Source of the DNA: Myxococcota bacterium
Lineage (GTDB): Bacteria > Myxococcota_A > UBA9160 > UBA6930
Length of the DNA: 64,000 nucleotides
Direction of reading: 5' to 3'
Assembly (NCBI GenBank): GCA_965223415.1
Contig: OZ245002.1
Location: forward strand, 5,376,001 to 5,440,000
This document shows positions 18,719-59,510 of the stretch, piece after piece (the stretch's first letter is position 1; each line of letters starts with the position of its first letter). Made by a program: the position numbers and the translations under genes. The notes under the pieces were generated by a model. It made no database searches. It saw only the letters and a list, made by a program, of their open reading frames with translations, and was not told the DNA's origin.

Positions 18719-18817
18719 TGGCGGGGCGGACGGGACTCGAACCCGCGGACCCCGGCGATAAGGGCCCGGAATCGTGAGGGTTTCTCTCGCGGACCCCGTG
18801 CTCAAGTTGTGCTCAAG
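18719..18817 (-). repeat. tRNA-Asp 3' fragment att-like site 1 (right-flank type A)
   Basis: Reverse complement GCGGGTTCGAGTCCCGTCCGCCCCGCCA; GTGCTCAAG x2. Confidence 0.9.
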
Positions 18818-18887
18818 GCCTCCCAGGCCGTCGATACCGGAACAGGCTCTCTTGTGGGAGTACGGTCTTGCCGATATGGTCAACCAT

Positions 18888-19133
18888 ATGAAGACCACGG
18901 TAGAGATCCCCGACCCTCTCGCCGAGGAGGCCAAGGCCGTGGCCCGTCGCGAGAAGACGACCCTGCGCGCGCTGATCGAGGCGGGCCTGCGCCACGTGGT
19001 GCGCGACCGGCGGCGCGGAGCGCGCTTCGAACTCCGCGACGCCAGCTTCGGCGGCCGGGGGCTCCAGCCCGAGTTCCGCGACGGCGACTGGCAGCGCATC
19101 CGCGAGGCCGCCTACGAGGGCCACGGCGGTTGA
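18888..19133 (+). CDS. vapB: VapB-like antitoxin (DUF2191/RHH type)
   Basis: MKTTVEIPDPL..EAK..A; overlaps PIN toxin; palindrome ATATGGT-CA-ACCATAT at 18874-18889. Confidence 0.85.
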   Translation: MKTTVEIPDPLAEEAKAVARREKTTLRALIEAGLRHVVRDRRRGARFELRDASFGGRGLQPEFRDGDWQRIREAAYEGHGG

Positions 19134-19564
19134 TCGCCGTCGACACGAACCTCCTCGTCTACGCGCACCGGACCGAATCGGAATGGCACGAACGGGCCTC
19201 CGCCTGCATCCGCGAGCTGGCGGAGGCCAGGTCGCCGTGGGCCCTGCCCTGGCCCTGCATCCACGAGTTCCTGGCGATCGCCACCCACCCGAGGATCTGG
19301 GATCCCCCGACGCCGACCGAGGCAGCCCTCGATCAGGTCGAAGCTTGGCTCGAGTCGCCGAGTCTGGTGCTCCTCGCCGAGAGCCCGGAGCACTGGAGGG
19401 AACTGCGCGATCAGATCGCGACAGGCCGCATCGCCGGCCCCCGGGTGCACGATGCGCGCATTGCGGCGCTGTGCCTCGAGCACGGAGTCCGCGAGCTCTG
19501 GACCGCGGACCGCGACTTCAGCCGGTTCCCAAGCCTCGCCACCGCGAACCCGCTCGCGGCGTAG
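19130..19564 (+). CDS. vapC: VapC PIN-domain toxin
   Basis: IAVDTNLLVYA, HDARIAAL, WTADRDF. Confidence 0.92.
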   Translation: MIAVDTNLLVYAHRTESEWHERASACIRELAEARSPWALPWPCIHEFLAIATHPRIWDPPTPTEAALDQVEAWLESPSLVLLAESPEHWRELRDQIATGRIAGPRVHDARIAALCLEHGVRELWTADRDFSRFPSLATANPLAA

Positions 19565-19584
19565 CGAAACTGCCGGAGGACGCG

Positions 19585-20193
19585 ATGGCGCAAGAAGAGC
19601 AGCAGAAGATCCGGTCCCGTCTTCGAAGCTACGAGCGAAAGCTCGAGCAAGAGAAAAGGAAGTTCGGCTACTACCACGACGGCGCGGGGAAGCGCTACCA
19701 GATTGCGCCCCACCATATGCTGCTAGGCGACAACGCCGGTGCGCTCGCAGCCTTCGAGTGGTTCGAGCACGAGTTCGATGAAGATATCGGAACGCCCGAC
19801 CACTCGCTTTGTTGGAGCCTCGCGCTCCACCGTGCCGGCAACGAAATCGGCGCTGCCAAGAAGCTGCGGCAGGCCATGCTCAGCAATCTGTACCTCGTTC
19901 CGCACTTGCTCGGTGCGCCGATCTCCGAGCTGGACATCTGGCATGGATCCAGCGACGCGGAGGCCAGGTACGTCGATCACATCCCCGATCAGTATCTCAA
20001 GCTCTGGACCGATGAAGAACGAGAGTGGGCCTCGGGGCTCTACCGAAGCCCCGGCTTCCAGTCCGCCCGCGAGCGGTACATCGAGATCAGCAAGCTCTTG
20101 GACAGCACCCGACCCGGGCCGGAGAGAACTCGTCTGGTCAGGGAGATGCACGAGCTGACCGGTCCGGCTGATCCTTTACTCAAGTCCAGGTAG
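19585..20193 (+). CDS. Hypothetical protein (C-terminus runs into IS481 end)
   Basis: GGAGG RBS, plausible composition; family not recognised. Confidence 0.6.
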   Translation: MAQEEQQKIRSRLRSYERKLEQEKRKFGYYHDGAGKRYQIAPHHMLLGDNAGALAAFEWFEHEFDEDIGTPDHSLCWSLALHRAGNEIGAAKKLRQAMLSNLYLVPHLLGAPISELDIWHGSSDAEARYVDHIPDQYLKLWTDEEREWASGLYRSPGFQSARERYIEISKLLDSTRPGPERTRLVREMHELTGPADPLLKSR

Positions 20194-21413
20194 ATCGTTT
20201 ACACCTCTCAGACTCCGGTGATCTTCCTGCTGCGCTCGTCGATGCGGCCCAGGATCGTCTCGTAGTAGACGATGCTCCAGATGCCGTCGCCGATCTCTTC
20301 AAGTCCGATGTACTCATCGGCCAGTGCGTTGCTCAGGAAGGGCTGCTTCGCCTTCAGCCGAAACGTCCCGGCCCGGCTCACGCGGCGCACTTCCATCTGC
20401 GCAGGGTACTCCGGCGGCGAGAGGCGACTGGGGTACGGCCGCGGCGAGGGCTCGTAGCGCTCCTCGGGAAACGCTCCACCGAGTGCTTCGTGCGGCCGCT
20501 CCTCGTTGTAGCGTCGACGAAAGGCCTCGAGCATCCGCTGCTGGACGTTGAGGTTCGCGCCAGGCGGGCGGGTCGCCTCGCGTTTGAGGTCCTTGTGCAT
20601 CCTCTCGTGCTGCCCGTTCTGTTGGGGGCTCGAAGGACGGATGCGCTGGTGCAAGATGCCGAGCTTCATCCACCACACGTTGAGTTCGCACAGGCCGTGG
20701 ATCCCGGTCGATGCGAAGGGGGCACCGTTGTCGGTGCGAATCGCCTCGGGAAGTCCGACCTCGCGAAAGAGCTCCCGAAACAGCGGCTTCACGCCCTCGG
20801 TGCGAATCGAGTGCAGCCCGCGGCACATCAGGAGCTTGCGGCTGCAGTGGTCGGTCACGGTCAGCGGGTAGCAGTAGCGACCGTTGCGCATCTTGAATTG
20901 GCCCTTGAAGTCCGCGGGCCACACCTGGTTCGGGTGGTCGGTCGACAGCGACGCAGCGCCGGGATGCGACCACTTCTTCCGACGTCGGTTCTTGCGCAGC
21001 TTGCCGTGGCGATCGAGGATCGCGTTCACCGTGCTTCGCGCGGGCCTCTGCATCTTCGGGTACCGGCGCTCGAGCACCTGCAAGATCTTCTTCGCACCCC
21101 AGCCGTACTCGGCGCGAAGGGCCAGGATCTTGCGCTCCACGCTCGCTGGCGTCCTGTGCGGGCAGCGAGCCGGCGCACGGGACCTCTCCTCCAGGCCGGC
21201 CTCCCCCTCCGACTCGAAGCGCCCGAGCCACTTGTAGCCTGTGGGCCGGGAGACACGATACCGCCGACACAGCTCGCTCATCGACCACTGACCGCTCTCG
21301 TAGTCGCGAACGAACGCCTGCCGCTGCTTCCTTGCATCCGTTTCCATCCAGGGCATCCCCCGGGTGTAAACGATGTCCCTGGACTCCTGTAAAGGATGTG
21401 GCCGGACCGTACC
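20156..21413 (-). mobile_element. IS481 family element, copy 1 (about 1258 bp)
   Basis: IRs CGGTCCGGC...ATCCTTTAC; near-identical to 49813-53737. Confidence 0.88.
20208..21356 (-). CDS. IS481 family transposase
   Basis: MPWMET, WPADFKG, IRTDNG, QNGQHERMH. Confidence 0.93.
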   Translation of the reverse strand: MPWMETDARKQRQAFVRDYESGQWSMSELCRRYRVSRPTGYKWLGRFESEGEAGLEERSRAPARCPHRTPASVERKILALRAEYGWGAKKILQVLERRYPKMQRPARSTVNAILDRHGKLRKNRRRKKWSHPGAASLSTDHPNQVWPADFKGQFKMRNGRYCYPLTVTDHCSRKLLMCRGLHSIRTEGVKPLFRELFREVGLPEAIRTDNGAPFASTGIHGLCELNVWWMKLGILHQRIRPSSPQQNGQHERMHKDLKREATRPPGANLNVQQRMLEAFRRRYNEERPHEALGGAFPEERYEPSPRPYPSRLSPPEYPAQMEVRRVSRAGTFRLKAKQPFLSNALADEYIGLEEIGDGIWSIVYYETILGRIDERSRKITGV

Positions 21414-21426
21414 ATCGATAGCCTAA

Positions 21427-21528
21427 CAGGCTGCTGAAATTCGGCGCTGAGAGGCGCCAGAACGCCAGAGGGCGCGGGTACCCGCGGCCCGCTCGGCTCG
21501 CTCTTCCTTCCCGGAAGCGATCCGGGGT
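21427..21528 (-). mobile_element. Solo end of the IS5-family element
   Basis: About 100 bp near-identical to 48529-48630. Confidence 0.8.
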
Positions 21529-21639
21529 TGTGTGTTCTCAGAACTTGGTCCACGCTGCTCTCCCGAAGCTCCGACCCGCCAGCTTACCGTGGGGCCCGTG
21601 AGCCTCGACAGCGTTGTGTCTGACCACAGGATCACGCAG

Positions 21640-22233
21640 GCTCGCCGCCGCTGTGAGGATCCTGCTCTCGTTCCTGCGGAATCACCGAGGTGGCATCGCG
21701 GCGATGGACTTCTTCGTCGTCCCGACCGTGCGCTTCCAGCTCTTGTAGGCTTGGTTCGTCCTCGACCACGGCCGGAGACGAGTCATCCATTTCAACGTCA
21801 TGACGATCCCACGGCAGCCTGGGTGATCCAGCAGCTCCGGGAGGCCTTCCCATCGGACAGCGCCCTTCCCTTTCTGCTCTACGACCGCGACTCGATCTTC
21901 TCGGCCGAGGTCACCGACACGATCCGGAGCCTCGGCATGGAGCCTGTCCGAACGGCGTACCGGAGCCCGTGGCAGAACCCGTTCGCCGAGCGGTGCATCG
22001 GGACCTGCCGGCGCGAGCTGCTCGACCACGTGGTCGTTCTCAGCGAACGGCATCTCCGGCGACTGCTCGCCGACTTCGTCGAGTACGACAACGCCGATCG
22101 CGTTCACACGCGCTTGGAGGACTCACCCGATGGACGCCCCTGCGAGGCCCGGATCTCGCCGAGCACAACGCTCGTCGCGCTCCCTCGCATCGGCGGTCTT
22201 CACCATCGATACGCGTGGAGCCCAGCGGCGTGA
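21640..22233 (+). pseudogene. Integrase-core (rve) transposase remnant
   Basis: IAAMDFFVVPT, then stop and frameshift, then DRDSIF and SPWQNPFAER.IGT.RRE. Confidence 0.8.
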
Positions 22234-33039: not shown

Positions 33040-33377
33040 CCAGCCCTACCCCTCCCGACGGGTTCCTGGAACCGGCGCGCGAGACGCCGGTGCGTCATGA
33101 GGTGCCGAGGGAGGTCGAGGTCAGGATCTACGCCCAGCCCGTGTAGGGCTCGCCGCCGTCGTCACGACTCCGAGTCGAACCCGGCCAATCCGCGCCCGGA
33201 TCCTGGGCCCGCACCTGCCGATTGGGTCCTGCCTCCCATCTCGATTTCGGTGGACGGGGAGGTCGCTTGTAGCCCGCGCGGTCCCCGGCGCGAGAAGCGC
33301 CGGAAACGCGGCACTTGCCCGCAGAGCGTGCGGGTCACGTGAAACCCGAAAAGCTGAATGAAATCAGTTAGATGTCT

Positions 33378-33472
33378 GGGCGGACGGGACTCGAACCCGC
33401 GGAGCCGGGCGATAAGACCCCGGAATCGTGAGGGTTTTTCTCGGCGACCCCGTGCTCAAGGTGTGCTCAAGG
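33378..33472 (-). repeat. tRNA-Asp 3' fragment att-like site 2 (type A)
   Basis: GGGCGGACGGGACTCGAACCCGC...GTGCTCAAG x2; near copy of site 1. Confidence 0.88.
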
Positions 33473-33516: not shown

Positions 33517-33806
33517 CTAAGCCGCCGCCTCAAGGCTCTCGCGAATGATCCGTGGGTGACGTGCGGCGATCCGGAGCAGCGCGATCGCAGGACCCTCCGG
33601 CTGCCTCCGGCCCTGCTCCCAGTTGCGAAGCGTGTGGACGCTGATTCCCATCGCCTTCGCGAAGTCCGTCTGTGTCAGCCCCACGAAGGTGCGGAGCGCA
33701 GCGATGTCCTGTCCAGACTCGAAGCGGCCCTGTATCAGCCGCCTCCGAAACGGGCGGGAATCGCCCGCTTCAGCTGCTCTTCGGTGAGTTCGGGGATATC
33801 TGTCAT
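33517..33806 (-). pseudogene. HTH antitoxin, frameshifted
   Basis: MTDIPELTEEQL in one frame, XRE HTH (GLTQ.DFA..MGIS..TLRNWEQGR) in another. Confidence 0.7.
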
Positions 33807-34092
33807 CGGCTCTGATCCATGTACGAGCGGTAAAGCGACCCCTCGCATGCGTTGGCCCAACGGGCGCCAATGATTCGAATGATGTCTTGTCGCGCTCGGT
33901 ATAGACGATGACCACGATTCGCCGCTCAATGGGACCGATCGCGATGAAGCGATCCTCGGAGTCGGAGTGTTCGCTGTGGAAGATCTCCAAGTAGTCGACA
34001 TCGGATTCGAAGAGCCATCGAGCCTCCCCGAACGAGATGCCGTGCTTCTCCTGGCTGAGCAGGTCCTTCGCATCGTCCCACTCGAAACGCAC
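33803..34092 (-). pseudogene. brnT: BrnT family toxin, frameshifted
   Basis: RFEWDDAK...KHGISF, EDRF.AIG; RIIGAR motif lies in a shifted frame. Confidence 0.75.
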
Positions 34093-36567: not shown

Positions 36568-36774
36568 GGCGGCGGGGGATCGCAGGTCCCTCGCCGTCGT
36601 CAACGTCCTGGGCGTCAGCCCCTATGGCCGCTTTTCAGACGTCCTTCTATGGCCGGTTTTGGGTGTCCACCGAGGGCCATGGCGCAAGGCGCGCGCCCTG
36701 GACCGGGCGGTGCGTATCCCACTCGTATCCCGACTCCCAGGCGGTCGGGAAACCCTAGAGAATCCGGAACCTTG

Positions 36775-36871
36775 TGGCGGGGCGGACGGGACTCGAACCT
36801 ACAACCTCCGGCTGTAACTCCGCGGAAACCCGGGGGTTCGTGAGGCGGAGGCTTGTATCCCGTTGTATCCC
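36775..36871 (-). repeat. tRNA-Asp 3' fragment att-like site 3 (type B)
   Basis: TGGCGGGGCGGACGGGACTCGAACCTACAACCTCCGGC...TGTATCCCGTTGTATCCC; GTATCCC x2 also at 36714-36731. Confidence 0.9.
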
Positions 36872-36930: not shown

Positions 36931-37131
36931 ATGGCGACCAACCTCGATCTCGACCCCAACCTCGTCGAGCGCGCCCTGGCCCTGAGCGGGGCCCCTACCA
37001 AGAAGGCGGCTGTGACGGCAGCCCTCCAGGAGTTCATCGCGCGGCGTGAGCAGCGCGGGCTCCTCGAGCTCTTTGGCAAGCTCGAGTGGGATCCTGGCTA
37101 CGACTACAAGCGTGAGCGCTCCCGGGATTGA
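36931..37131 (+). CDS. vapB: VapB-like antitoxin
   Basis: MATNLDLD..L...AL..SG..TKK.AV..AL.EFI; overlaps PIN toxin. Confidence 0.88.
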   Translation: MATNLDLDPNLVERALALSGAPTKKAAVTAALQEFIARREQRGLLELFGKLEWDPGYDYKRERSRD

Positions 37132-37532
37132 GCCTGTTCGTCGACACGAGCGTCTGGTCGCTCGCACTGCGCCGCGACCGTCCACCCGACGTGCCAGAGG
37201 TCGGCGCGCTCGAGCGGGCGCTCGCGGAGGGCGAGTTGATCACTACCACCGGCCTCGTCTACCAGGAGCTCCTCCAGGGGTTCCATGGCCCGCGCGACCA
37301 GGAGGCGATCGTGGCGCACTTCGGCGCCCTGCCCTTCCTGACGCCCGATCGCCACGATCACTTCGAGGCCGCGCAGTTGCGCAACCGGGCCCGCCGTCGG
37401 GGAGTCCAGGTCGGCACGATCGACGCGATCCTCGCCCAGCTCTGCATCCGCTACGAGCTACGGCTGCTCACCACCGACGCGGACTTCGCGCGAATCGCCG
37501 AGCAAGAGCCGCTGGAGCGCTGGATGCCGTAG
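37128..37532 (+). CDS. vapC: VapC PIN-domain toxin
   Basis: VDTSVWS, IDAILA, LLTTDADF. Confidence 0.92.
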   Translation: MSLFVDTSVWSLALRRDRPPDVPEVGALERALAEGELITTTGLVYQELLQGFHGPRDQEAIVAHFGALPFLTPDRHDHFEAAQLRNRARRRGVQVGTIDAILAQLCIRYELRLLTTDADFARIAEQEPLERWMP

Positions 37533-39914: not shown

Positions 39915-40011
39915 TGGCGGGGCGGACGGGACTCGAACCTACAACCTTCGGCTGTAACTCCTCGGAAACGAAGGGGTTCTTGAGGCTGAAGCCTGTATCC
40001 CGTTGTATCCC
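39915..40011 (-). repeat. tRNA-Asp 3' fragment att-like site 4 (type B)
   Basis: Same core and TGTATCCC x2; left flank 39811-39914 resembles 43451-43555. Confidence 0.9.
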
Positions 40012-40061: not shown

Positions 40062-40388
40062 ATGTCGGTCGCAAGCATCGTCCGGGAGGCCCGCCGCCGC
40101 GCGGGCCTGACCCAGGCCTCATTGGCCCAGAAGGCGGGCGTTCCGAAGTCCACCGTAGGCCGGATCGAGTCCGGGGCTCGAACGCCTTCGGTCGAGCTCG
40201 TGGAGCGGCTCGTCCGAGCGGCCGGGCTCGAGGTCACCATCGCCTTGTCCGAGCCCGATCCCGGAACCGACTCCTTGTTCGAGCGCACGCTACGCCGCAC
40301 ACCTGCAGAGCGACTCGCCGATGCGACTCGAGCGGCGCGCTTCGTCCTGCGCGGCAGGCGCGAGATCGCGGCCGCGGCCGATGGCTAG
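40062..40388 (+). CDS. XRE-family HTH protein (putative antitoxin)
   Basis: REARRRAGLTQ..LA.KAGV..STV.RIESG; palindrome TAGCCAATTGGCTA at 40037-40050. Confidence 0.85.
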   Translation: MSVASIVREARRRAGLTQASLAQKAGVPKSTVGRIESGARTPSVELVERLVRAAGLEVTIALSEPDPGTDSLFERTLRRTPAERLADATRAARFVLRGRREIAAAADG

Positions 40389-40896
40389 TCGCGACTTCGA
40401 CCCGGAGAAGATGCTCTCCGTGCTGGCGGAGGCAGGCGTGGAGTTCGTCCTCATCGGCGGTATGGCGGCAATCCTGCACGGCGACGTCGGGGTCACCGTC
40501 GACCTGGATGTCGTTCCTGACCGCGAAGCGGCGAATCTCGAGCGTCTCGCGCGAGCTCTACAAGAGCTTGGAGCACGCATCCGCACCGAGGGTGAGCCGG
40601 AGGGATTGGCGTTCGATTGCTCGGCCCAGTTCTTCGCCAACCTGTCTCCTGACTCGATCGTGAACATGACCACGCAGGCAGGCGACCTGGACGTCACGTT
40701 CTGCCCGAGCGGAACGCAGGGCTTCCGGGACCTCCGGCGAGACGCCGTTGAAATCGAAGCGGCCGAGCGCCTACACATCCTGGTGGCATCGCTCGCAGAC
40801 ATCATTCGCTCGAAGGAAGCTGCCGGTCGAGAGAAAGACCGCCTCGCCCTGCCCCGCCTTCGTCGACTACTGGATCGCCTCGGCGAGAGCGAGTAG
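40381..40896 (+). CDS. Nucleotidyltransferase-like protein (putative TA partner)
   Basis: FVLIGG.A..LHG...T.DLD, SK.AAGR.KD. Confidence 0.8.
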   Translation: MASRDFDPEKMLSVLAEAGVEFVLIGGMAAILHGDVGVTVDLDVVPDREAANLERLARALQELGARIRTEGEPEGLAFDCSAQFFANLSPDSIVNMTTQAGDLDVTFCPSGTQGFRDLRRDAVEIEAAERLHILVASLADIIRSKEAAGREKDRLALPRLRRLLDRLGESE

Positions 40897-41030: not shown

Positions 41031-41110
41031 GGAAATGCTCCGGCGAGTCAATTCTCATGCGGCGACCCATCTGATTTTCCTATTCGAATGGTCATGATAT
41101 ATTGAAGTTC

Positions 41111-42706: not shown

Positions 42707-42708
42707 TG

Positions 42709-43346: not shown

Positions 43347-43401
43347 TGGCACGCCGGGAGGGATTCGAACCCCCGACCCCCAGGTTCGAAGCCCGATGCT
43401 C
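43347..43401 (-). repeat. tRNA-Arg(TCG) 3' two-thirds (incomplete tRNA)
   Basis: Reverse complement GAGCATCGGGCTTCGAACCTGGGGGTCGGGGGTTCGAATCCCTCCCGGCGTGCCA; 5' acceptor strand and D-arm absent. Confidence 0.88.
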
Positions 43402-43555
43402 GATGTCGAACCACCGGACAACGCAGTTCGAAGAGCCGCGCGCTTCCGGGCGTCGGGGATCCGAGATCTGGCGCTCCGCGCAACAACCAAGGGCAACCAT
43501 AGCGCCGAACCAAGCACCGCCAGAACGCGAATTACTCAGCGAATCCAGCGGGTTA

Positions 43556-43652
43556 TGGCGGGGCGGACGGGACTCGAACCTACAACCTCCGGCTGTAACC
43601 CCGCGGAAACGCGGGGGTTCGAAGAGGTGAAGCTTGTATCCCGTTGTATCCC
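43556..43652 (-). repeat. tRNA-Asp 3' fragment att-like site 5 (type B)
   Basis: Same core and TGTATCCC x2. Confidence 0.9.
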
Positions 43653-43708: not shown

Positions 43709-44061
43709 CCTAGCTCGGTGCCGACGGAGGTCGAGGTCAGAATCTACGCCCTACCGGACGGCAGCGAGCCCTACACGCGGTGGGAGGCGGCACTCAGGGA
43801 CAGACAGGCGCGCGCACGGATCCGGGCGCGGATCGGACGGCTTCGGCTGGGCAACTTCGGCGACGCCAAGCGCGTCGGTGAGGTGTTCGAGCTTCGGGTG
43901 CCCGCCGGGCCCGGCTACCGCATCTACTACGGGCGGGACGGCGACGCCGTGGTGGTCCTGCTCTGCGGCGGAGACAAGTGTCGCAGGACGTGATATTCGA
44001 GGGCTAAGAGGACACGTAGATTTGCGCACCTCCTGTTGAGCCGCTGCGCGGCACGTTCCCC

Positions 44062-45348
44062 GTGAGGGAGGGGGGCGTGGGGCAGCGGCGACTGAGGCAG
44101 GAGGAAGTGATGACGATCGAAGTGCTGCACGAGCGGGGGTGCTCGAACCGGGAGATCGCCCGCCAGCTGGGGATCCGGGAGAGCGCGGTGCGCTACCGGC
44201 TGAAGCGGCTGGCGGAGGGGGCGCGAGACGGCCGGAGCGGGAAGCCCTTCCTGGCCGAGGCGGTCCACGAGGTGATCGCGGAGTGGCTGGAGGCGAGCTC
44301 GGGAGGCCGTGGCGTGAACCTGCAGGAGCTTCACGAGTTCCTGGTGGAGGAGCACGGGTACACGGGGAGCTCCAAGAGCGTGCAGCGGTACGTGCGGGCC
44401 CGGTTCCCGAGACCGAAGGTGCGGAGCCGGCGTCGGGTGGAGACACCGCCCGGGGCGCAGGGTCAGGTGGACTGGGGCGAGTTTCCGGGCGTGCGGATCG
44501 GGGGCCAGGAGGTGGACCTGCATGCCTTCCACCTGGTGCTCTCGCACTCGCGGCGAGAAGCGGTGGTGTGGTCGGAGCGGGCGGACACGCTGGCGTGGCT
44601 GGACGTGCACAACCGGGCCTTCGAGCGGCTGGGCGGGGTGCCGGCGGTGCTGCGGGTCGACAACGTGAAGACAGCGGTGGCGAAGGGGGCGGGGCCATGG
44701 GGGACGGTGAACCCGGCTTACGCGAGCTATGCCGGGGCCCTTCGCTTCCACGTGGACGCCACCCGTCCCCGCCAGCCGCAGGAGAAGGGGAAGGTGGAGC
44801 GTCGGATCCTGGGGCACCGGCGGGGCTTCGATCCGCGTCGGCGGGAGCACGAGAGCCTGGAGTCGCTGCAAGCGTGGACGGACGGCCAGGTGGCGCGCTC
44901 GAGCCACCGGCGGCAGTGCCCGGCGACGGGCACGACGGTCTTCCAGGCGTGGGAGGCGGAGAAGCCCCATCTCGGGGCCCTGCCCGAGCGGCTTCCCGAG
45001 CCCTTCGACCTGGCCGTGATGCGACGTGTCGGGCGCGACGCCACGGTGCGCTTCGAGGGGCGTACCTACAGCGTCCCCTTCCGCTTCGTCGAGCAGAGCG
45101 TCGAGGTGCGCGGCTGCGCCCGGCAGGTGCAGGTCTGGGCCGAGGGCTCGGTGGTGGCCGCGCACCCGCGCCACACGCGAAGCCGCCTGCTGCTGGACCC
45201 GAGCCACTACGAGGGGCCGAGCACGGAGGGGGTGGAGGCGCCCGTACCGCTCGGGCGCATGGGTCGACGCCTCCAGGAGCTGTGGGCGATGGAGCCGGAG
45301 CAGCGGCCGATCGACCTCTATGCCGATCTGGCGGAGGTGGCGCGATGA
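44062..45348 (+). CDS. istA: IS21 transposase
   Basis: Same protein as 10275-11561. Confidence 0.95.
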   Translation: MREGGVGQRRLRQEEVMTIEVLHERGCSNREIARQLGIRESAVRYRLKRLAEGARDGRSGKPFLAEAVHEVIAEWLEASSGGRGVNLQELHEFLVEEHGYTGSSKSVQRYVRARFPRPKVRSRRRVETPPGAQGQVDWGEFPGVRIGGQEVDLHAFHLVLSHSRREAVVWSERADTLAWLDVHNRAFERLGGVPAVLRVDNVKTAVAKGAGPWGTVNPAYASYAGALRFHVDATRPRQPQEKGKVERRILGHRRGFDPRRREHESLESLQAWTDGQVARSSHRRQCPATGTTVFQAWEAEKPHLGALPERLPEPFDLAVMRRVGRDATVRFEGRTYSVPFRFVEQSVEVRGCARQVQVWAEGSVVAAHPRHTRSRLLLDPSHYEGPSTEGVEAPVPLGRMGRRLQELWAMEPEQRPIDLYADLAEVAR

Positions 45349-46145
45349 CGGCGGGAAACCCGGTGCCCAAGAAGGGCGGCAAGGTGGATCTCGACCCGAC
45401 CCGCGAGCGGCTCGTGCGCCTCGGCCTCCATCACGCGGCCGAGCACATCGGCGAGGAGCTGGCCCGAGCGACCAAGGACGACCTCGTGCCCCACCGCTTC
45501 CTCGACCTGCTGCTCGAGGCCGAGCTGCAGCACCGCGAGGAGCGGAGGATGAAGACCTCGCTCCGTCTCTCGGGCCTTCCCACGGGGCAGACCCTCGGCA
45601 ACTTCGACTTCGCCTTCCAGCCGAGTGTGGAGCGGAGCCGGATCGAGACGCTGGGCACCTGCGCGTGGATCCGGGCCAAGGAGAGTCTGCTGATCCAGGG
45701 TCCGCCGGGAGTGGGCAAGACCCACCTGGCGGTGGCCCTGGGGGTGCGGGCCGTGGAGAACGGCTTCTCCGTGGCCTTCCATCGCCTCGAGGACCTGCTG
45801 GCGGCCCTCAAGCGCGACGCCGAGATCAGCCCGCAACGGCTGCGGCGGCGCAAGCACATGAACGTGGCGCTCCTCGTCATCGACGAGGTCGGCTTCGAGC
45901 CCATGACGCGCCAGGAGGCGAGCCTCTTCTTCCGGCTCGTCTCCTACCGCTATGGGAGGGGCTCGATCCTGATCACCACGAACAAGGGCATCGCCGACTG
46001 GCCCGAGGTGCTGGCGGGCGACGAGGTGCTGGCCACCGCCATCCTCGATCGCCTCCTCCACCACAGCCAGGTGCTCAACATCTCGGGGCGGAGCTACCGG
46101 CTCCGCGAGCTCGAGCAGGCCGCGGGGCAAAGCGCCCAGCGTTGA
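45345..46145 (+). CDS. istB: IS21 helper ATPase
   Basis: GPPGVGKT, LVIDEVG, LDRLLHH. Confidence 0.95.
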   Translation: MTAGNPVPKKGGKVDLDPTRERLVRLGLHHAAEHIGEELARATKDDLVPHRFLDLLLEAELQHREERRMKTSLRLSGLPTGQTLGNFDFAFQPSVERSRIETLGTCAWIRAKESLLIQGPPGVGKTHLAVALGVRAVENGFSVAFHRLEDLLAALKRDAEISPQRLRRRKHMNVALLVIDEVGFEPMTRQEASLFFRLVSYRYGRGSILITTNKGIADWPEVLAGDEVLATAILDRLLHHSQVLNISGRSYRLRELEQAAGQSAQR

Positions 46146-46349
46146 GGCCCCAGAGGGCGGCCTGACGGCCGTGCTCTCCTTCGGAGAGCGGAAGAGAAGA
46201 AGGAAGAACCGAACATCAACCCAGGGGGGTGCGCAAAACTAGCCGTCCTCTTAGCGCGCAAGAGATGACGTCCCTCGACAACAAGGGATCACAGGCGAGA
46301 GACATCGAGCGCGCCGAAGGGTATTGGCGCGACTACCGGAGTCGAAACG

Positions 46350-46652
46350 ATGGCAAGAGCTAGAGACTACCGAGAGCACCTGGACGAGGTGCTGAAGGAC
46401 CACGCGGAGGCGGTGGCCTACCTGAACGCCGCTCTAGCAGAGGACGACCCGGAAGTGTTCCTCCTCGCGCTCCGCGACGTGGCCCGCACTCGGGAGGGTG
46501 GACTCGCAGGCCTGGCCGAGGCCGCGCAGCTCAACCGCGAGCACCTCTACCGGATGCTCTCCGAGAACGGCAACCCGGAGCTCCGCAGCCTGGAGGCACT
46601 CCTCGACGCGCTGGGCTTCCGCCTGAGCGTCGAGCTGAAGGCAACGGGCTGA
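46350..46652 (+). CDS. Addiction-module antidote protein (HTH)
   Basis: YLNAAL, ALRDVAR, RE.LYR.LS..GNP. Confidence 0.9.
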   Translation: MARARDYREHLDEVLKDHAEAVAYLNAALAEDDPEVFLLALRDVARTREGGLAGLAEAAQLNREHLYRMLSENGNPELRSLEALLDALGFRLSVELKATG

Positions 46653-51766: not shown

Positions 51767-52457
51767 GCTCGACCTCCTGGAGCTCGTCCTTCAGGACGAA
51801 GTCGATCGCCGCGACCACAAGAACCTCGAGACGCGCCTTTCCCGCGCCGGCTTCGAGGAAGAGCAGACCCTCGAGGCCTTCGACTGGGATGCCCCCGTCA
51901 CCTTCGATCGCGATCGCGTGAAGGACCTCTTCTCCCTCGGCTTCCTCGAGCGCCACGAGGACGTCATCCTGCTCGGCCCCGTGGGCGTGGGCAAGACCTT
52001 CCTGGCCTCCGCCCTGGGACACGCCGCCTGCCGGGCCGGGCACCACGTCCTCTTCCTCCGCGTCGACCGCATGTTCCACTGGCTCCACCAGTCGCGAGCC
52101 GACCTCTCGACCGAGAAGGTCTTCCGACGCCTCCTCGCCCCGGACCTCCTCGTCCTCGACGACTTCGGCCTCCGGCGCCTCTCCGCCGAGCAGTCGAGCG
52201 ATCTCTACGAGGTCGTCCTCGAACGCCACCGCCGCGCTTCGACGATCGTCACCAGCAACCGCGCCATCGAGGAATGGATCCCCCTCTTCGACGACCCCAT
52301 CCTGGCCCAGAGCGCCCTCGACCGCCTCGCCCACAACGCCTACCAGCTCGTCATCGAGGGCGAGAGCTACCGCAAGCAACAGCGCCCCGGCGAAATGCCG
52401 ACCCACACCCCCGCCAATCCCCAGCGCCGAAGCCGCCGCCGAACCCGCGTCCGCTGA
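51651..52457 (+). CDS. istB: IS21 helper ATPase
   Basis: Same protein as 12199-13005. Confidence 0.93.
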   Translation: MTTEINPSLKTLLKRLKLSGMLATLPDRVAYTRKTKLPELDLLELVLQDEVDRRDHKNLETRLSRAGFEEEQTLEAFDWDAPVTFDRDRVKDLFSLGFLERHEDVILLGPVGVGKTFLASALGHAACRAGHHVLFLRVDRMFHWLHQSRADLSTEKVFRRLLAPDLLVLDDFGLRRLSAEQSSDLYEVVLERHRRASTIVTSNRAIEEWIPLFDDPILAQSALDRLAHNAYQLVIEGESYRKQQRPGEMPTHTPANPQRRSRRRTRVR

Positions 52458-53929: not shown

Positions 53930-54674
53930 GTGCTTAGCGAGACATCGCTGACACCTGATTCCGGAGACATGGTTTACACAATCGGCAATTTGGGGAGCCC
54001 CCGGATGCCGTGGAGAACGTGTAGACCGATGGATGAACGCCTCCGCTTCGTAGCTCGCCTGCTCGAGGGCGAGAAGATGGCGCCCCTGTGCCGCGAGTTC
54101 GGGATCTCCCGGGTCACCGGGTACAAGATCTACGAGCGCTACAAGACCTGCGGCCTCGAGGGCCTGAACGACCGCTCCCGCCGGCCCTATCGCCACGCCA
54201 ACAAGCTGCCGTACCAGGTCGAACGCGCGATCCTGGGGATCAAGAAGGAGTACCCCTCCTGGGGGGCTCCGAAGATCCGCGACAAGCTGATCCGCGACTT
54301 CCCGATGATCAAACCGCCCGCGGTGAGCACGGTGCATGCCGTGCTGGATCGCAACGGACTGGTCATGCGGCGGAAGCGGAGACGCCACAAGGCCAAGGGC
54401 ACGGAGCTCAAGGCGGCCCACGCTCCGAACGGCCTGTGGTGCGCAGACTTCAAGGGCGAGTTCATGCTCGGCAGCAAGCAGTACTGCTACCCGCTGACGA
54501 TCACCGACTACCGAACGCGCTACCTACTCGCCTGCGAGGGTCTCTCGTCGACGCGGTCGGACTTCGCCTTCTCCGTCTTCGAGAGGACCTTCAAGGACTT
54601 CGGGCTGCCGACGGCGATCCGCACCGACAACGGGGTTCCCTTCGCGTCGCCCAACGCACTCTTCGGTCTCTCGA
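53930..54674 (+). mobile_element. IS481-like element, 5' part (transposase from 54005, truncated)
   Basis: MPWRTC.PMDERLRF...WCADFKG...IRTDNG, then breaks off. Confidence 0.82.
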
Positions 54675-54681
54675 AGTCAAC

Positions 54682-55014
54682 ATGCTCGAAGGCATCTTCG
54701 GAAACGCCAGCGCCGAGAAAGTGCTGCTCTACCTCGAGCAGTACGAGGAGGGCTACGCGACCGCGATCGCCCGGACCTTCGACGGCCTGTCGCTCAACAT
54801 GGCGCAGCGGCAGCTCGAGCGATTCGAGCGCGCCGGCGCGCTGGTGAGCTCGCTCCAGGGCCGCACCCGCCTCTACACCTGGAATCCCCGCTATCCGTTT
54901 CGGCGCGAGCTGCGGGCCCTCCTCCGCAAGGCGCTCGACCAGCTGCCCGCGTCAGAGCGCAAGCGCTACTTCACCGAACGAAGACGGCCGCGCCGAGCGG
55001 GCAAGCCGATTTGA
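54682..55014 (+). CDS. Winged-helix (ArsR-like) protein
   Basis: MLEGIFGN...KVLLYL....EGYA..IA; overlaps a truncated downstream ORF at 55011. Confidence 0.75.
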   Translation: MLEGIFGNASAEKVLLYLEQYEEGYATAIARTFDGLSLNMAQRQLERFERAGALVSSLQGRTRLYTWNPRYPFRRELRALLRKALDQLPASERKRYFTERRRPRRAGKPI

Positions 55015-55216
55015 GCAAGAAGCCTCGGATCAGCCAGCCCACCTCTCTGGAGGATCTGGCCGCCCTCGTCTGCTCCACGCTTGTCGAGGGACGTCATCTC
55101 TTGCGCGCTAAGAGGACGGCTAGTTTTGCGCACCCCCCTGGGTTGATGTTCGGTTCTTCCTTCTTCTCTTCCGCTCTCCGAAGGAGAGCACGGCCGTCAG
55201 GCCGCCCTCTGGGGCC

Positions 55217-56017
55217 TCAACGCTGGGCGCTTTGCCCCGCGGCCTGCTCGAGCTCGCGGAGCCGGTAGCTCCGCCCCGAGATGTTGAGCACCTGGCTGTG
55301 GTGGAGGAGGCGATCGAGGATGGCGGTGGCCAGCACCTCGTCGCCCGCCAGCACCTCGGGCCAGTCGGCGATGCCCTTGTTCGTGGTGATCAGGATCGAG
55401 CCCCTCCCATAGCGGTAGGAGACGAGCCGGAAGAAGAGGCTCGCCTCCTGGCGCGTCATGGGCTCGAAGCCGACCTCGTCGATGACGAGGAGCGCCACGT
55501 TCATGTGCTTGCGCCGCCGCAGCCGTTGCGGGCTGATCTCGGCGTCGCGCTTGAGGGCCGCCAGCAGGTCCTCGAGGCGATGGAAGGCCACGGAGAAGCC
55601 GTTCTCCACGGCCCGCACCCCCAGGGCCACCGCCAGGTGGGTCTTGCCCACTCCCGGCGGACCCTGGATCAGCAGACTCTCCTTGGCCCGGATCCACGCG
55701 CAGGTGCCCAGCGTCTCGATCCGGCTCCGCTCCACACTCGGCTGGAAGGCGAAGTCGAAGTTGCCGAGGGTCTGCCCCGTGGGAAGGCCCGAGAGACGGA
55801 GCGAGGTCTTCATCCTCCGCTCCTCGCGGTGCTGCAGCTCGGCCTCGAGCAGCAGGTCGAGGAAGCGGTGGGGCACGAGGTCGTCCTTGGTCGCTCGGGC
55901 CAGCTCCTCGCCGATGTGCTCGGCCGCGTGATGGAGGCCGAGGCGCACGAGCCGCTCGCGGGTCGGGTCGAGATCCACCTTGCCGCCCTTCTTGGGCACC
56001 GGGTTTCCCGCCGTCAT
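55217..56017 (-). CDS. istB: IS21 helper ATPase
   Basis: Same protein as 45345-46145. Confidence 0.95.
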   Translation of the reverse strand: MTAGNPVPKKGGKVDLDPTRERLVRLGLHHAAEHIGEELARATKDDLVPHRFLDLLLEAELQHREERRMKTSLRLSGLPTGQTLGNFDFAFQPSVERSRIETLGTCAWIRAKESLLIQGPPGVGKTHLAVALGVRAVENGFSVAFHRLEDLLAALKRDAEISPQRLRRRKHMNVALLVIDEVGFEPMTRQEASLFFRLVSYRYGRGSILITTNKGIADWPEVLAGDEVLATAILDRLLHHSQVLNISGRSYRLRELEQAAGQSAQR

Positions 56018-57300
56018 CGCGCCACCTCCGCCAGATCGGCATAGAGGTCGATCGGCCGCTGCTCCGGCTCCATCGCCCACAGCTCCTGGAGGCGTCGACC
56101 CATGCGCCCGAGCGGTACGGGCGCCTCCACCCCCTCCGTGCTCGGCCCCTCGTAGTGGCTCGGGTCCAGCAGCAGGCGGCTTCGCGTGTGGCGCGGGTGC
56201 GCGGCCACCACCGAGCCCTCGGCCCAGACCTGCACCTGCCGGGCGCAGCCGCGCACCTCGACGCTCTGCTCGACGAAGCGGAAGGGGACGCTGTAGGTAC
56301 GCCCCTCGAAGCGCACCGTGGCGTCGCGCCCGACACGTCGCATCACGGCCAGGTCGAAGGGCTCGGGAAGCCGCTCGGGCAGGGCCCCGAGATGGGGCTT
56401 CTCCGCCTCCCACGCCTGGAAGACCGTCGTGCCCGTCGCCGGGCACTGCCGCCGGTGGCTCGAGCGCGCCACCTGGCCGTCCGTCCACGCTTGCAGCGAC
56501 TCCAGGCTCTCGTGCTCCCGCCGACGCGGATCGAAGCCCCGCCGGTGCCCCAGGATCCGACGCTCCACCTTCCCCTTCTCCTGCGGCTGGCGGGGACGGG
56601 TGGCGTCCACGTGGAAGCGAAGGGCCCCGGCATAGCTCGCGTAAGCCGGGTTCACCGTCCCCCATGGCCCCGCCCCCTTCGCCACCGCTGTCTTCACGTT
56701 GTCGACCCGCAGCACCGCCGGCACCCCGCCCAGCCGCTCGAAGGCCCGGTTGTGCACGTCCAGCCACGCCAGCGTGTCCGCCCGCTCCGACCACACCACC
56801 GCTTCTCGCCGCGAGTGCGAGAGCACCAGGTGGAAGGCATGCAGGTCCACCTCCTGGCCCCCGATCCGCACGCCCGGAAACTCGCCCCAGTCCACCTGAC
56901 CCTGCGCCCCGGGCGGTGTCTCCACCCGACGCCGGCTCCGCACCTTCGGTCTCGGGAACCGGGCCCGCACGTACCGCTGCACGCTCTTGGAGCTCCCCGT
57001 GTACCCGTGCTCCTCCACCAGGAACTCGTGAAGCTCCTGCAGGTTCACGCCACGGCCTCCCGAGCTCGCCTCCAGCCACTCCGCGATCACCTCGTGGACC
57101 GCCTCGGCCAGGAAGGGCTTCCCGCTCCGGCCGTCTCGCGCCCCCTCCGCCAGCCGCTTCAGCCGGTAGCGCACCGCGCTCTCCCGGATCCCCAGCTGGC
57201 GGGCGATCTCCCGGTTCGAGCACCCCCGCTCGTGCAGCACTTCGATCGTCATCACTTCCTCCTGCCTCAGTCGCCGCTGCCCCACGCCCCCCTCCCTCAC
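56014..57300 (-). CDS. istA: IS21 transposase
   Basis: Same protein as 44062-45348. Confidence 0.95.
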   Translation of the reverse strand: MREGGVGQRRLRQEEVMTIEVLHERGCSNREIARQLGIRESAVRYRLKRLAEGARDGRSGKPFLAEAVHEVIAEWLEASSGGRGVNLQELHEFLVEEHGYTGSSKSVQRYVRARFPRPKVRSRRRVETPPGAQGQVDWGEFPGVRIGGQEVDLHAFHLVLSHSRREAVVWSERADTLAWLDVHNRAFERLGGVPAVLRVDNVKTAVAKGAGPWGTVNPAYASYAGALRFHVDATRPRQPQEKGKVERRILGHRRGFDPRRREHESLESLQAWTDGQVARSSHRRQCPATGTTVFQAWEAEKPHLGALPERLPEPFDLAVMRRVGRDATVRFEGRTYSVPFRFVEQSVEVRGCARQVQVWAEGSVVAAHPRHTRSRLLLDPSHYEGPSTEGVEAPVPLGRMGRRLQELWAMEPEQRPIDLYADLAEVAR

Positions 57301-57758: not shown

Positions 57759-58559
57759 ATGACCGTGGGCGACGAAGCCACCTACCAGCTACTGCGCGGC
57801 TTGGGGCTCGCTGTCGCCTTTGCGCTAGGAATCGCGCTGGAGCAGTGGCGCCCGCACGAACGCCTGCGACCGGCGTGGCGCACCAACGTCGGCCTCTGGG
57901 CCATCGACGCCGCCGTCATGGCCGCTGTCTGCGGGGCGTGCGGGTGGCTCGTGGCCGCCTGGGCGGCGAGCCTCGGACTCGGGCTCTTCGCCTGGCTTGA
58001 CACCCCCACCTGGGCGGCGGCCGCGTTCGGCGTGCTGGCGCTCGATGGCGTCTCGTACGCCTGGCACCGCGCGAACCACCGGATCCCGCTCCTCTGGCGC
58101 TTCCACCAGGTACATCACGCGGACACGAGCTTCCACGTGACGACGGCGTTGCGCTTCCATCCCGGAGAGCTCCTGCTCGCCCTCCCCGTCCGCCTCGCCG
58201 CCGTGGTGGCGTTGGGCGTGCCACCGGCGGGCGTCCTCCTCTTCGAGATCGTCTTCGGGATCGCGAACCTCCTGGAGCACGGGAACTTCGACCTTCCCCG
58301 CCGCTTCGAGCCCTTGGCGCAGCGCGTGCTCATCACGCCGGCGCTGCACCGGGCGCATCACGTCTCCGACTGGCAGGAGCTGGACACGAACTTCGGCACG
58401 ATCCTCTCGGCGTGGGATCGCCTCGCCGGAACGCTGCGCACGAGTGACGGGGCTCGCCGCGTGGTGACCGGGCTGCCCGACTGGAAAGCAGAACGAGCGC
58501 CGTCGCTCTCGGAGTCGCTCTTCCTGCCCCTTTCCCAAAGCCGTTCGCGAGCGCGCTGA
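57759..58559 (+). CDS. Sterol desaturase / fatty acid hydroxylase family
   Basis: HRANH, HQVHH, RFHPGE, HRAHH boxes. Confidence 0.92.
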   Translation: MTVGDEATYQLLRGLGLAVAFALGIALEQWRPHERLRPAWRTNVGLWAIDAAVMAAVCGACGWLVAAWAASLGLGLFAWLDTPTWAAAAFGVLALDGVSYAWHRANHRIPLLWRFHQVHHADTSFHVTTALRFHPGELLLALPVRLAAVVALGVPPAGVLLFEIVFGIANLLEHGNFDLPRRFEPLAQRVLITPALHRAHHVSDWQELDTNFGTILSAWDRLAGTLRTSDGARRVVTGLPDWKAERAPSLSESLFLPLSQSRSRAR

Positions 58560-58720
58560 AGACCCCACCCGGCGAACTCCAACAACGGCTCGATGGGCGC
58601 GGTTGTATCCCGCTTGTATCCCGACCCGCGCACACGTCGAGAACACGAGCGAGCACGCCCACTTGCAGACGAAGCGTGCGGGTTTCGAGAAACCCGAAAA
58701 GCTGAACGAAATCAGCTAGA

Positions 58721-58817
58721 TGGCGGGGCGGACGGGACTCGAACCTACAACCTCCGGCCCTAAGTGCCCGGAAACACAATGGTTCAGACGACTGAAGCTT
58801 GTATCCCGTTGTATCCC
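58721..58817 (-). repeat. tRNA-Asp 3' fragment att-like site 6 (type B variant)
   Basis: Same core, TGTATCCC x2; second pair at 58603-58622; left flank resembles 33312-33374. Confidence 0.9.
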
Positions 58818-58882
58818 GCCATCCGCAGGCAAGGGCTCCGACATCCGTGGTGTGGTTGTAGCTTTAAAGCTACGCTAGCTCG

Positions 58883-59221
58883 GTGCCGACGGAGGTCGAG
58901 GTCAGAATCTACGCCCTGCCGGACGGCAGCGAGCCCTACACGCGGTGGGAGGCGGCACTCAGGGACAGACAGGCGCGGGCACGCATCCGGGCGCGGATCG
59001 GACGGCTTCGGCTCGGCAACTTCGGCGACGCCAAGCGCGTGGGTGAGGTGTTCGAGCTTCGGGTTCGCGCCGGGCCCGGCTACCGCATCTACTACGGAAG
59101 GGACGGCGACGCCGTGGTGGTCCTGCTCTGCGGCGGAGACAAGGGATCACAGGCGAGAGACATCGAGCGCGCCGAAGGGTATTGGCGCGACTACCGGAGT
59201 CGAAACGATGGCAAGAGCTAG
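58883..59221 (+). CDS. RelE/HigB-like addiction-module toxin
   Basis: GNFGD.K.VG.V.ELR...GPGYRIYY, LLCGGDK.SQ.RDI. Confidence 0.92.
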   Translation: MPTEVEVRIYALPDGSEPYTRWEAALRDRQARARIRARIGRLRLGNFGDAKRVGEVFELRVRAGPGYRIYYGRDGDAVVVLLCGGDKGSQARDIERAEGYWRDYRSRNDGKS

Positions 59222-59510
59222 AGACTACCGAGAGCACCTGGACGAGGTGCTGAAGGACGACGCGGAGGCGGTGGCCTACCTGAACGCCGCTCTTGCGGAG
59301 GACGACCCGGAAGTGTTCCTCCTCGCGCTCCGCGACGTGGCCCGCACTCGAGAGGGTGGACTCGCAGGCCTGGCCGAGGCCGCGCAGCTCAACCGCGAGC
59401 ACCTCTACCGGATGCTCTCCGAGAACGGCAACCCGGAGCTCCGCAGCCTGGAGGCACTCCTCGACGCGCTGGGCTTCCGCCTGAGCGTCGAGCTGAAGGC
59501 AACGGGCTGA
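59208..59510 (+). CDS. Addiction-module antidote protein (HTH)
   Basis: Near-identical to 46350-46652. Confidence 0.9.
   Translation: MARARDYREHLDEVLKDDAEAVAYLNAALAEDDPEVFLLALRDVARTREGGLAGLAEAAQLNREHLYRMLSENGNPELRSLEALLDALGFRLSVELKATG

Follow-up and report, generated by a model that had tools for sequence, protein, structure and literature searches.

Six tRNA-Asp fragments, each adjoined by a toxin-antitoxin module, suggest a tandem array of decayed tRNA-integrating elements in a Myxococcota genome

The window analyzed here, a 64,000-nt stretch of a Myxococcota bacterium genome (GCA_965223415.1, contig OZ245002.1, 5,376,001 to 5,440,000 of the forward strand), contained six fragments of the 3′ end of a tRNA-Asp gene, each followed by a short tandem repeat and then by a toxin-antitoxin (TA) or TA-like module. 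The fragments were marked by the 20-mer GGGCGGACGGGACTCGAACC, which occurred six times, in exact copies and always on the + strand, starting at positions 18724, 33378, 36780, 39920, 43561, and 58726; 0.08 copies were expected, and none of 100 shuffles reached six. With TGGCG in front of it, the 20-mer is the reverse complement of a tRNA 3′ end. Positions 18718-18757 matched annotated tRNA-Asp genes in phage records at 87–90% and were matched by plasmid records as well; in the plasmid and phage collections only this 40-nt tRNA-Asp end found matches and the site arms found none. Neither ARAGORN nor Rfam (E ≤ 1) called a tRNA at any of the six sites, the sole call in the window being a tRNA-Arg(TCG) at 43351-43420. 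The six sites are therefore fragments and not tRNA genes.

Every window site carried a tandem repeat about 55 nt past its tRNA-derived core, at +80/+90 nt from the CCA end. Sites s1 and s2 had two copies of GTGCTCAAG with an 11-bp period, and s3 to s6 had two copies of TGTATCCC with a 10-bp period. The sites, together with the tRNA-Arg gene next to s5, were as follows:

18719..18817, + strand: site s1, with a 25-bp core at 18719-18743, a diverged pseudo-tRNA part, and GTGCTCAAG twice, at 18798 and 18809.
33373..33471, + strand: site s2, with two mismatches in the core and GTGCTCAAG twice, at 33452 and 33463.
36713..36871, + strand: site s3, with left-arm CGTATCCC twice, at 36713 and 36724, the core from 36775, and right-arm TGTATCCC twice, at 36854 and 36864.
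39915..40011, + strand: site s4, with a left arm of the X type (next line) and TGTATCCC twice, at 39994 and 40004.
43351..43555, − strand: intact tRNA-Arg(TCG) gene, 43351-43420 (ARAGORN, Rfam), and, as left arm of s5, the X spacer.
43556..43652, + strand: site s5, with TGTATCCC twice, at 43635 and 43645.
58604..58817, + strand: site s6, with left-arm TGTATCCC twice, at 58604 and 58615, the core from 58721, and right-arm TGTATCCC twice, at 58800 and 58810.

All six sites adjoined a TA or TA-like pair, as a first-pass annotation of the window had claimed, and the domains were supported by Pfam and NCBIfam. The distance from repeat to module, which that annotation had put at 45–70 bp, measured 70, 45, 59, 50, 65, and 65 bp from s1 to s6. 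The modules were:

18888..19564, + strand: s1 module, VapB-like gene 18888-19133 (Pfam E = 7e-4) and VapC/PIN gene ~19127-19564 (TIGR00028, 94 bits, cut-off 73.6).
33517..34092, − strand: s2 module, a single open reading frame (ORF) of 191 amino acids (aa) with an N-terminal BrnT domain (4e-14) and a C-terminal MqsA/XRE helix-turn-helix (HTH) domain (4e-8).
36931..37532, + strand: s3 module, VapB 36931-37131 (2e-15) and VapC 37128-37532 (NF047959, 91 bits, cut-off 80).
40062..40896, + strand: s4 module, XRE-HTH antitoxin-like gene 40062-40388 and DUF6036 nucleotidyltransferase 40381-40896 (4e-5).
43718..46652, + strand: s5 module, RelE/ParE-family toxin part 43718-43978, IS21 43979-46280, and intact antidote 46350-46652.
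58883..59510, + strand: s6 module, RelE/ParE-family toxin 58883-59221 (TIGR02683, 114 bits) and antidote 59208-59510 (TIGR02684, 66 bits).

Two small adjoining or overlapping genes with toxin and antitoxin domains, the arrangement of a type II TA system, were thus present at six of six sites, fused into one ORF at s2; the s4 module (XRE and DUF6036) was TA-like. The same slot was filled, as first annotated, by five different modules: two kinds of VapBC, BrnT/HTH, XRE with a nucleotidyltransferase, and RelE/ParE with its antidote. The s5 and s6 modules were near-duplicates (92–100% identical per 25-nt window, 99% over 46281-46580), so the independent modules in the window number five. In s5 the toxin (TIGR02683, 94 bits, cut-off 62.9) was split by IS21 after codon 87 of 112 with a 5-bp duplication, ACAAG, and the antidote (TIGR02684, 64 bits, cut-off 53.7) was uninterrupted. 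The s2 module was the only one of the six pointing towards its site; an IS21 copy begins about 140 bp beyond its ORF. A tRNA-Arg T-arm fragment (~37540-37565) directly followed the s3 VapBC. The binomial chance of six out of six modules falling in six slots of 200 bp was 4e-11, and no further TA module turned up in Pfam scans of 93 window ORFs filtered by GC content at third codon positions (GC3) and 76 ORFs from gene-free stretches. The gap between repeat and module held palindromes, GTAGCTTTAAAGCTAC at s5 and s6 and TAGCCAATTGGCTA at s4, from which each TA module appears to bring a putative promoter/operator region of its own. An anti-phage role had been proposed for the slot; PADLOC returned only generic HTH or Fic-domain matches for the TA modules, so that this role lacks specific support.

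Related loci were collected from genome contigs with a degenerate pattern of the positions conserved in both site classes, cargo being ignored. The scan gave six loci, all with the same architecture. One Myxococcota metagenome-assembled genome (MAG) supplied four of them; of the other two, one belonged to a MAG titled Thermoleophilia and the other to a MAG with 72.7% GC titled Spirochaetales. With a site profile, 13 sites were placed in the six loci, in addition to a degenerate fragment at 9090-9116 of locus L005 (E = 0.01), for a total, window included, of 19 full or partial sites and one degenerate fragment. Inside each locus all sites had one orientation. With L3c left out (contig end), 12 related sites could be evaluated, and a Pfam-supported TA or TA-like pair directly followed the repeat at six of them. 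A seventh, weak TA-like case, L5a, was counted solely through a BLASTP match (E = 2e-4). The slots contained:

L2: DUF4160 and HTH.
L3a: VapBC.
L3b: Phd and PIN.
L4a: VapBC.
L4b: MazE-like and Fic/Doc.
L005 degenerate fragment (9090-9116): followed by VapBC.
L5a: winged-HTH gene and a protein whose N-terminus weakly resembles the s4 nucleotidyltransferase.
L1: no TA, another gene.
L4c: TetR and DUF3604, no TA.
L6a: DF-family protein, no TA.
L6b: nitrile hydratase, no TA.
L6c: cyclase with tetratricopeptide repeats (cyclase-TPR), no TA.

Pfam and NCBIfam gave no name to the L5a pair or to the second gene of L006a. TA enrichment beside related sites had been suggested as a check on the original observation; six to seven of the 12 related slots held a TA. 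Over the 126,143 bp of window and loci about 15 TA modules were counted, and at least 12 of these fell in the 18 slots, which cover 2.85% of the sequence (binomial 1e-16, homologous cassettes not being independent in this figure), and nine different TA families were involved. Cassettes of about 1 kb with a TA alone were found in L003, L004, and L005. Several window modules had counterparts in these loci. The s1 module was ~79% identical at the nucleotide level to a cassette of L004 and 84% to one of L005; the s3 site and module were 82% identical to L003 2316-1483; and the s4 module was 50% identical in aa sequence to L005 8541-9044. The s1-like and s4-like modules (84% nt and 50% aa identity) adjoined each other in L005, whereas they lie 21 kb apart in the window. 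A fixed place after the repeat is thus filled by different TA families outside the window also, and stabilization, one role first suggested for the slot, is the most plausible one. A TA in the slot is not obligatory, as five of the 12 related sites carry other genes.

One locus retained the intact tRNA gene. The L005 site at 11184-11225 belongs to a real tRNA-Asp(GTC) gene (11186-11262), of which it forms the 3′ end. This gene closes the array on the very side on which serial integration into the tRNA 3′ end would leave the intact copy. Same-orientation fragments with the intact cognate tRNA at one end were seen in L005; the window had the six same-strand fragments. As a side observation, L005 8225-11262 packs three TA or TA-like cassettes against the tRNA-Asp gene, in the order XRE with DUF6036, degenerate tRNA fragment, VapBC, full site, winged-HTH with nucleotidyltransferase-like gene, tRNA.

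The 25-bp block common to all sites, TGGCGGGGCGGACGGGACTCGAACC (aligned to the L005 tRNA-Asp), extends from the CCA end to the T-loop and consists of the CCA end, the 3′ strand of the acceptor, the 3′ strand of the T-stem, and the T-loop. To the right of it only a diverged variable region and the anticodon stem follow, with a changed anticodon loop; the D-arm and the acceptor 5′ strand are missing. The T-arm, CGGG-ACTCGAA-CCCG, supplies imperfect inverted repeats around a short overlap, as do the cores that heterobivalent tyrosine integrases use at their attachment (att) sites, where the overlap is 6–8 bp. The repeat motifs recurred on the same strand in some left arms, at −61/−50 in s3, −116/−105 in s6, and −52/−41 in L6a, and also in L2, L3a, and L3c. 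These repeats are putative arm-binding sites of an integrase.

In pairwise identity profiles the left arm of a site varied independently of the right arm, and the breakpoints fell at the edges of the core. The left arm was common to s5 and L3b (64–96% per 25-nt window, 88–96% in three of six) and the right arms were different. Between s5 and s6 the left arms were unrelated, the core was 100% identical, the pseudo-tRNA part 72–76%, the repeat 96%, and the TA 92–100%. Sites s4, s5, L6c, and L1 had a common arm through the repeat and unrelated cargo from about +100. These mosaic profiles place exchange points at both core edges and just after the repeat, a pattern that matches att-site anatomy with a variable cargo position beside the P arm. 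The s5 and s6 TA modules are much more alike than their site arms, which points to exchange between repeat and TA and suggests that this TA was copied or converted apart from its site.

Further features of the arms may be mentioned here. Left arms of s1, s2, s3, s6, L2, L3a, L3c, and L6a had a GC-rich variable hairpin followed by (G)AAAA(C/G)C some 25–45 nt left of the core, an example being 58673-58695 in s6, where a hairpin is followed by an A-run on the + strand. On the tRNA-sense strand of s6, the hairpin AGCTGA…TCAGCT and TTTC come right after the CCA end and look like a possible terminator for a regenerated tRNA. Two other readings of the sites were considered and rejected. One was a small insertion of the kind of a short interspersed nuclear element or a miniature inverted-repeat transposable element (SINE/MITE-like), marked by the repeats around the pseudo-tRNA. 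The other was a primer-binding-site-like role of the tRNA 3′-end complement, which was discarded because the homology reaches as far as the anticodon stem and because the L005 array terminates in a real tRNA.

Remnants of integrase genes were located by tblastn in the related loci. L006 10241-10065 encodes an integrase tail only, from the catalytic tyrosine on (TERYAKLADPALVEAFGAHHARRRD, E = 4e-13), directly left of L6a; a frameshifted N-terminal integrase fragment lies left of L4a (L004 10494-10187, E = 6e-6); and L003 2361-2167 encodes an integrase tail (E = 1e-12). Left arms are accordingly what survives of integrase 3′ ends, and part of the cassettes, at the least, arose by deletion from elements that carried an integrase.

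Phage Mx8 of Myxococcus xanthus, which presumably integrates into tRNA-Asp, has a site of the same layout. The site profile had one match at E ≤ 0.01 in the Mx8 genome, at 6442-6479 (E = 0.0026), inside the int gene (5085-6809); read on the opposite strand, the Mx8 core gives a T-arm and 3′ end of tRNA-Asp type. The 49.5-kb genome contains the 9-mer GTGACAGCG in three exact copies, all of one strand and all around this core: two precede it, by 72 and 61 nt, and the third follows it by 140 nt. According to PMC4383910, both the Mx8 and the SSV integrase extend across attP, the phage att site.

The window was translated across a TGTATCCC-type site in the frame of Mx8 int, and longer proteins were sought with this query. 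Six proteins were retrieved, of which five were unannotated ORFs across similar junctions. The sixth, P0002 (188 aa), contained a tyrosine-recombinase catalytic end, RHRDVRSTERYAKL, and matched Pfam Phage_integrase over positions 102-170 of 172 (E = 5e-5, below the gathering score, the protein being partial). P0002 runs in frame into a TGTATCCC-type site (MAGRTGLEPTTSGCNPAETQGSEEMRFVSRCIP). With P0002 as query, an exhaustive HMMER search retrieved 522 proteins at E ≤ 0.001, and its full-length relatives of 360–440 aa were Phage_integrase proteins, among them P0012 (417 aa, 66% identity to P0002). The ends of P0062, P0096, and P0106 reach the core-coded peptide, and P0008 and P0009 run into a variant TGTATCCC-type site. 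P0007, 86% identical to P0002, reads through the antisense strand of an intact tRNA-Asp, its peptide GLEPATSGVTGQCSNQLNYRPA being one residue different from the translation of the L005 tRNA-Asp gene. The integrase frame thus continues across the core in the database relatives P0002, P0007, P0008, P0062, P0096, and P0106. The same integrase beside an intact tRNA and beside a pseudo-site corresponds to the integrated state on the one hand and to attP or a tandem junction on the other. A protein search that used the ORF reading through a GTGCTCAAG-type site had no match among its 42 candidates, which is weak evidence.

Taken together, the sites are most probably att sites of a tyrosine-integrase family and scars of serial integration into tRNA-Asp. 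The window would probably represent a tandem array of decayed tRNA-Asp-integrating elements, in which the att-proximal TA modules persisted by addiction. This reading draws on observed features, namely the site anatomy, the link to an integrase, the intact tRNA-Asp at one array end, the integrase fragments, and the TA domains; the TA modules are presumed to be active, and addiction would explain their persistence.

The proposed sequence of events is as follows. Small elements would integrate serially and site-specifically into the tRNA-Asp 3′ end, with strand exchange within the 25-bp core, and so leave junctions. The right (P) arm of each junction would be a diverged copy of the remaining tRNA ending in two direct repeats, and the left (P′) arm would derive from the 3′ tail of the integrase gene or from the spacer between tRNA-Asp and tRNA-Arg. 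The gene for the cognate tyrosine integrase would normally lie directly left of the core and read into it, as in Mx8. A TA pair, with its own promoter and operator region, would be the first cargo inside the P arm and act as an addiction module, so that excision or deletion of the cassette would poison the cell. Deletions would remove the integrase and other cargo and spare the TA, because its loss is poisonous. The predicted end state is a row of att scars, each with a TA pair behind it, among them ~1-kb cassettes with nothing else.

Several results weigh against this reading. Pfam detected no Phage_integrase or resolvase domain in the window among 93 GC3-filtered ORFs, eight ORFs of unknown function, and 76 gap ORFs, and tblastn with Mx8 Int and eight database integrases found only the site-coded tails there; no integrase was thus found in the window, and its sites are only putatively active. 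ARAGORN found no intact tRNA-Asp in the 64 kb. Five of 12 related sites were without a TA in the slot. Several cassettes have both arms intact and no integrase fragment, which fits selected non-autonomous units equally well as random decay. The best BLASTP match of P0002 to Mx8 Int was E = 0.22, no detectable relation; what the two share is the layout. The peptides of P0002 and P0008 (pair) and of P0009 (single copy), when read back, imply a left arm of GTGCTCAAG type and a right arm of TGTATCCC type. On account of these mixed arms, a rule of one repeat type on both arms, which fit six of six clear junctions in the window and loci, was dropped. Lastly, the left arm of seven of the 19 sites was of the X type, that is, the spacer to tRNA-Arg, which simple serial integration does not predict; the spacer leads to a tRNA-Arg or pseudo-tRNA-Arg at s5, L3b, and L4c, and many cassettes therefore carry a copy of the neighboring tRNA locus.

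In the main rival explanation, the cassettes would still be alive as mobile but non-autonomous units, much like integron cassettes, cis-mobilizable elements (CIMEs), or dif modules. Each unit would consist of an attP-like site and a TA, alone or together with further cargo; the integrase that captures, excises, and shuffles the units would be encoded at another place in the genome, and the TA would be their selfish core. The ~1-kb cassettes L003a, L003b, L004b, and L005a keep both arms with repeats and have no integrase debris, as such units should. The same TA cassettes occur in different order and context between genomes, as with the s1-like and s4-like modules, the arms recombine independently at the core, and a matching integrase family exists. 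Against these points, the integrase pseudogene fragments beside two sites (L004, L006) indicate decay from autonomous elements, no integrase was present in the 64-kb window or in 62 kb of loci (108 ORFs of the six loci yielded no Phage_integrase or resolvase domain in Pfam), no circular form or empty site was observed, and the site arm copies, 60–90% alike, are compatible with neutral drift. Living units are possible and, on present evidence, rather unlikely.

A related and broader proposal, equally tentative, is a tRNA-Asp-anchored, integron-like cassette system built of phage-type parts in Myxococcota-like bacteria. Backbone-less cassettes of attP-like site and TA would be shuffled by an integrase encoded elsewhere, and tRNA-Arg copies would be landing pads for a second integrase family bringing catabolic islands. 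The attP-like site may be the tRNA core with arm repeats in a relic integrase tail, and the mobilizing integrase's own gene may span the same site.

Growth of the array by homologous recombination or unequal crossing-over of a duplicated tRNA-Arg/spacer/tRNA-Asp locus, with TA modules inserted between the copies and no integrase involved, is improbable. The native-looking X-type left arm with tRNA-Arg or pseudo-tRNA-Arg before s5, L3b, and L4c, the direct orientation of all copies, and the lack of a local integrase are in keeping with it. It does not account for sharp breakpoints that coincide exactly with the limits of the 25-bp core or come after the repeat, arm repeats as in Mx8 attP, integrase ORFs fused in frame to the site, or integrase remnants in left arms.

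VapC/PIN and nucleotidyltransferase toxins of other systems act on tRNAs, and the fragments retain the T-arm and CCA end. The first-pass annotation had speculated that the tRNA-like RNA interacts with tRNA-cleaving or tRNA-modifying toxins; once transcribed, it might be a decoy, a substrate, or an antitoxin-like RNA for its neighbors. This is very improbable, as no functional tRNA or tRNA-like cloverleaf was found at the six sites by ARAGORN, Rfam (E ≤ 1), or consensus folding. The consensus folds had no acceptor stem, compensatory changes occurred in two of 20 and none of nine predicted pairs, and the covariation terms were positive (+1.19 and +0.67 kcal/mol). The adjoining toxins are mechanistically unrelated (PIN, RelE/ParE, BrnT, Doc, nucleotidyltransferase), the same site stands beside non-TA genes as well (nitrile hydratase, cyclase, TetR), and att function already explains the site features. 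Least probable of all is coincidence or duplication of one site-plus-TA unit, for which the s5/s6 near-duplication speaks and against which stand five TA families in the window and nine overall, the binomial values for the window and for all sequence, and the collection of related loci without reference to cargo.

A second family of sites, att-like as well, was interleaved with the first. The window held six copies of the tRNA-Arg anticodon arm CCCAGGTTCGAAGCC, where 0.01 were expected, and each of them read on the + strand:

7530-7544, + strand: CCCAGGTTCGAAGCC copy, followed by a diverged CTGCC/CTGCA pair.
15961-15975, + strand: copy, with GGGTGCA twice at 15987.
40924-40938, + strand: copy, followed by CGGGAAT three times.
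43379-43393, + strand: copy in the real tRNA-Arg gene.
46709-46723, + strand: copy, with GGGTGCA twice at 46775.
61025-61039, + strand: copy, with GGGTGCA twice at 61091.

All copies outside the real gene were thus followed by tandem repeats of their own. At s4, s5, and s6 a copy stood just after the TA module, and catabolic or regulatory genes followed (TetR, glutathione S-transferase, P450, ATPase). The arrangement suggests candidate islands integrated into tRNA-Arg copies that the cassettes carry. An AAA_14/DUF4143 ATPase at 41102-42262, assigned by PADLOC to the candidate defense family PDC-S01 (E = 1.5e-55), is carried by the small island that has the tRNA-Arg fragment at 40924 on one side and the intact tRNA-Arg gene on the other.

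Insertion sequences were very dense in the window and account for much of the spacing between sites. They included IS3, copies and fragments of IS21 and IS481, IS5/DUF772, and IS110. The first 300 bp of the IS21 at 43979-46280 were identical to 10192-10491, and the same IstA was encoded at 56017-57300 on the minus strand. The insertion-sequence stretches were:

8504-9388
10192-15021
20211-22230
34233-36603
42589-43305
48656-57300
59566-60978

If read as a decayed array, the window shows how a tRNA integration hot-spot ages: the integrase and most cargo vanish, and the att scar and the addictive TA stay. This could account for TA modules piling up beside tRNA fragments in large environmental genomes. 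The analysis defines a tRNA-Asp tyrosine-integrase/att family in which, as is already known for Mx8, the integrase gene overlaps its own site, and the mapped cis elements (core and two repeat motifs) are a possible integration tool in Myxococcota. Were the cassettes mobile in trans, they would represent a new integron-like way of gene collecting. TA-stabilized tRNA islands, tandem tRNA-gene (tDNA) islands, and an integrase gene spanning attP (Mx8) are already known. Four features appear to be new: the length of the integrase-less scar array, the regularity with which a TA comes first (in some cassettes as sole content), the second, tRNA-Arg-based site family interleaved with the array, and the integrase/att family itself. 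The open-access literature searched contained no account of such TA arrays at tRNA-Asp.

Among known systems, the tandem tRNA islands described in the Islander report (PMC4383910) are alike in having a displaced, tRNA-oriented 3′ tDNA fragment at each island end, an intact tRNA at one end of the array (here in L005), and a tyrosine integrase as the enzyme. Islander demands an integrase per island, and tandems of at least three islands are reported there only four times in 2168 genomes (PMC4383910). By contrast, the window has six fragments in 40 kb and no integrase, some cassettes are only ~1 kb, and the TA is att-proximal; no Phage_integrase domain was found in the window or loci, and L004 and L006 held pseudogene fragments. 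Mx8 shares the antisense core (T-arm and 3′ end of tRNA-Asp type), same-strand direct repeats of 9 bp in the arms to either side of it, and an integrase ORF across the core. It differs in its repeat motifs and in an integrase to which P0002 is not detectably similar, and the window has neither int nor phage genes.

HipAB is reported to stabilize the Shewanella island CGI48 at tRNA-Trp (PMC8978831), and MosAT the SXT element (PMC2654960). As proposed here, a type II TA inside a site-specifically integrated element counteracts loss in both. These are, as described, single large elements with integrase and excisionase whose stabilization was established by experiment, whereas the present cassettes are many, small, and integrase-less, and their stabilization is inferred only.

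The dif/pdif modules of Acinetobacter are likewise without a recombinase of their own, carry sites for a recombinase encoded elsewhere, and commonly contain TA genes. The pdif sites are described as plasmid-borne XerC/D sites of 28 bp whose orientation alternates, whereas the present sites measure ~230 bp, are all direct and tRNA-derived, and are anchored at a chromosomal tRNA; no dif consensus search was made.

Integron arrays consist of short same-orientation cassettes between recombination sites and include many TA cassettes, which may stabilize the array. The window and loci have no IntI, attI, or structured attC (the consensus folds were without covariation); their sites are tRNA-derived, double-strand att sites with arm repeats, and their TA genes have operator-like palindromes upstream. 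What they have in common with integron arrays is the TA-rich succession of short same-orientation cassettes separated by recombination sites.

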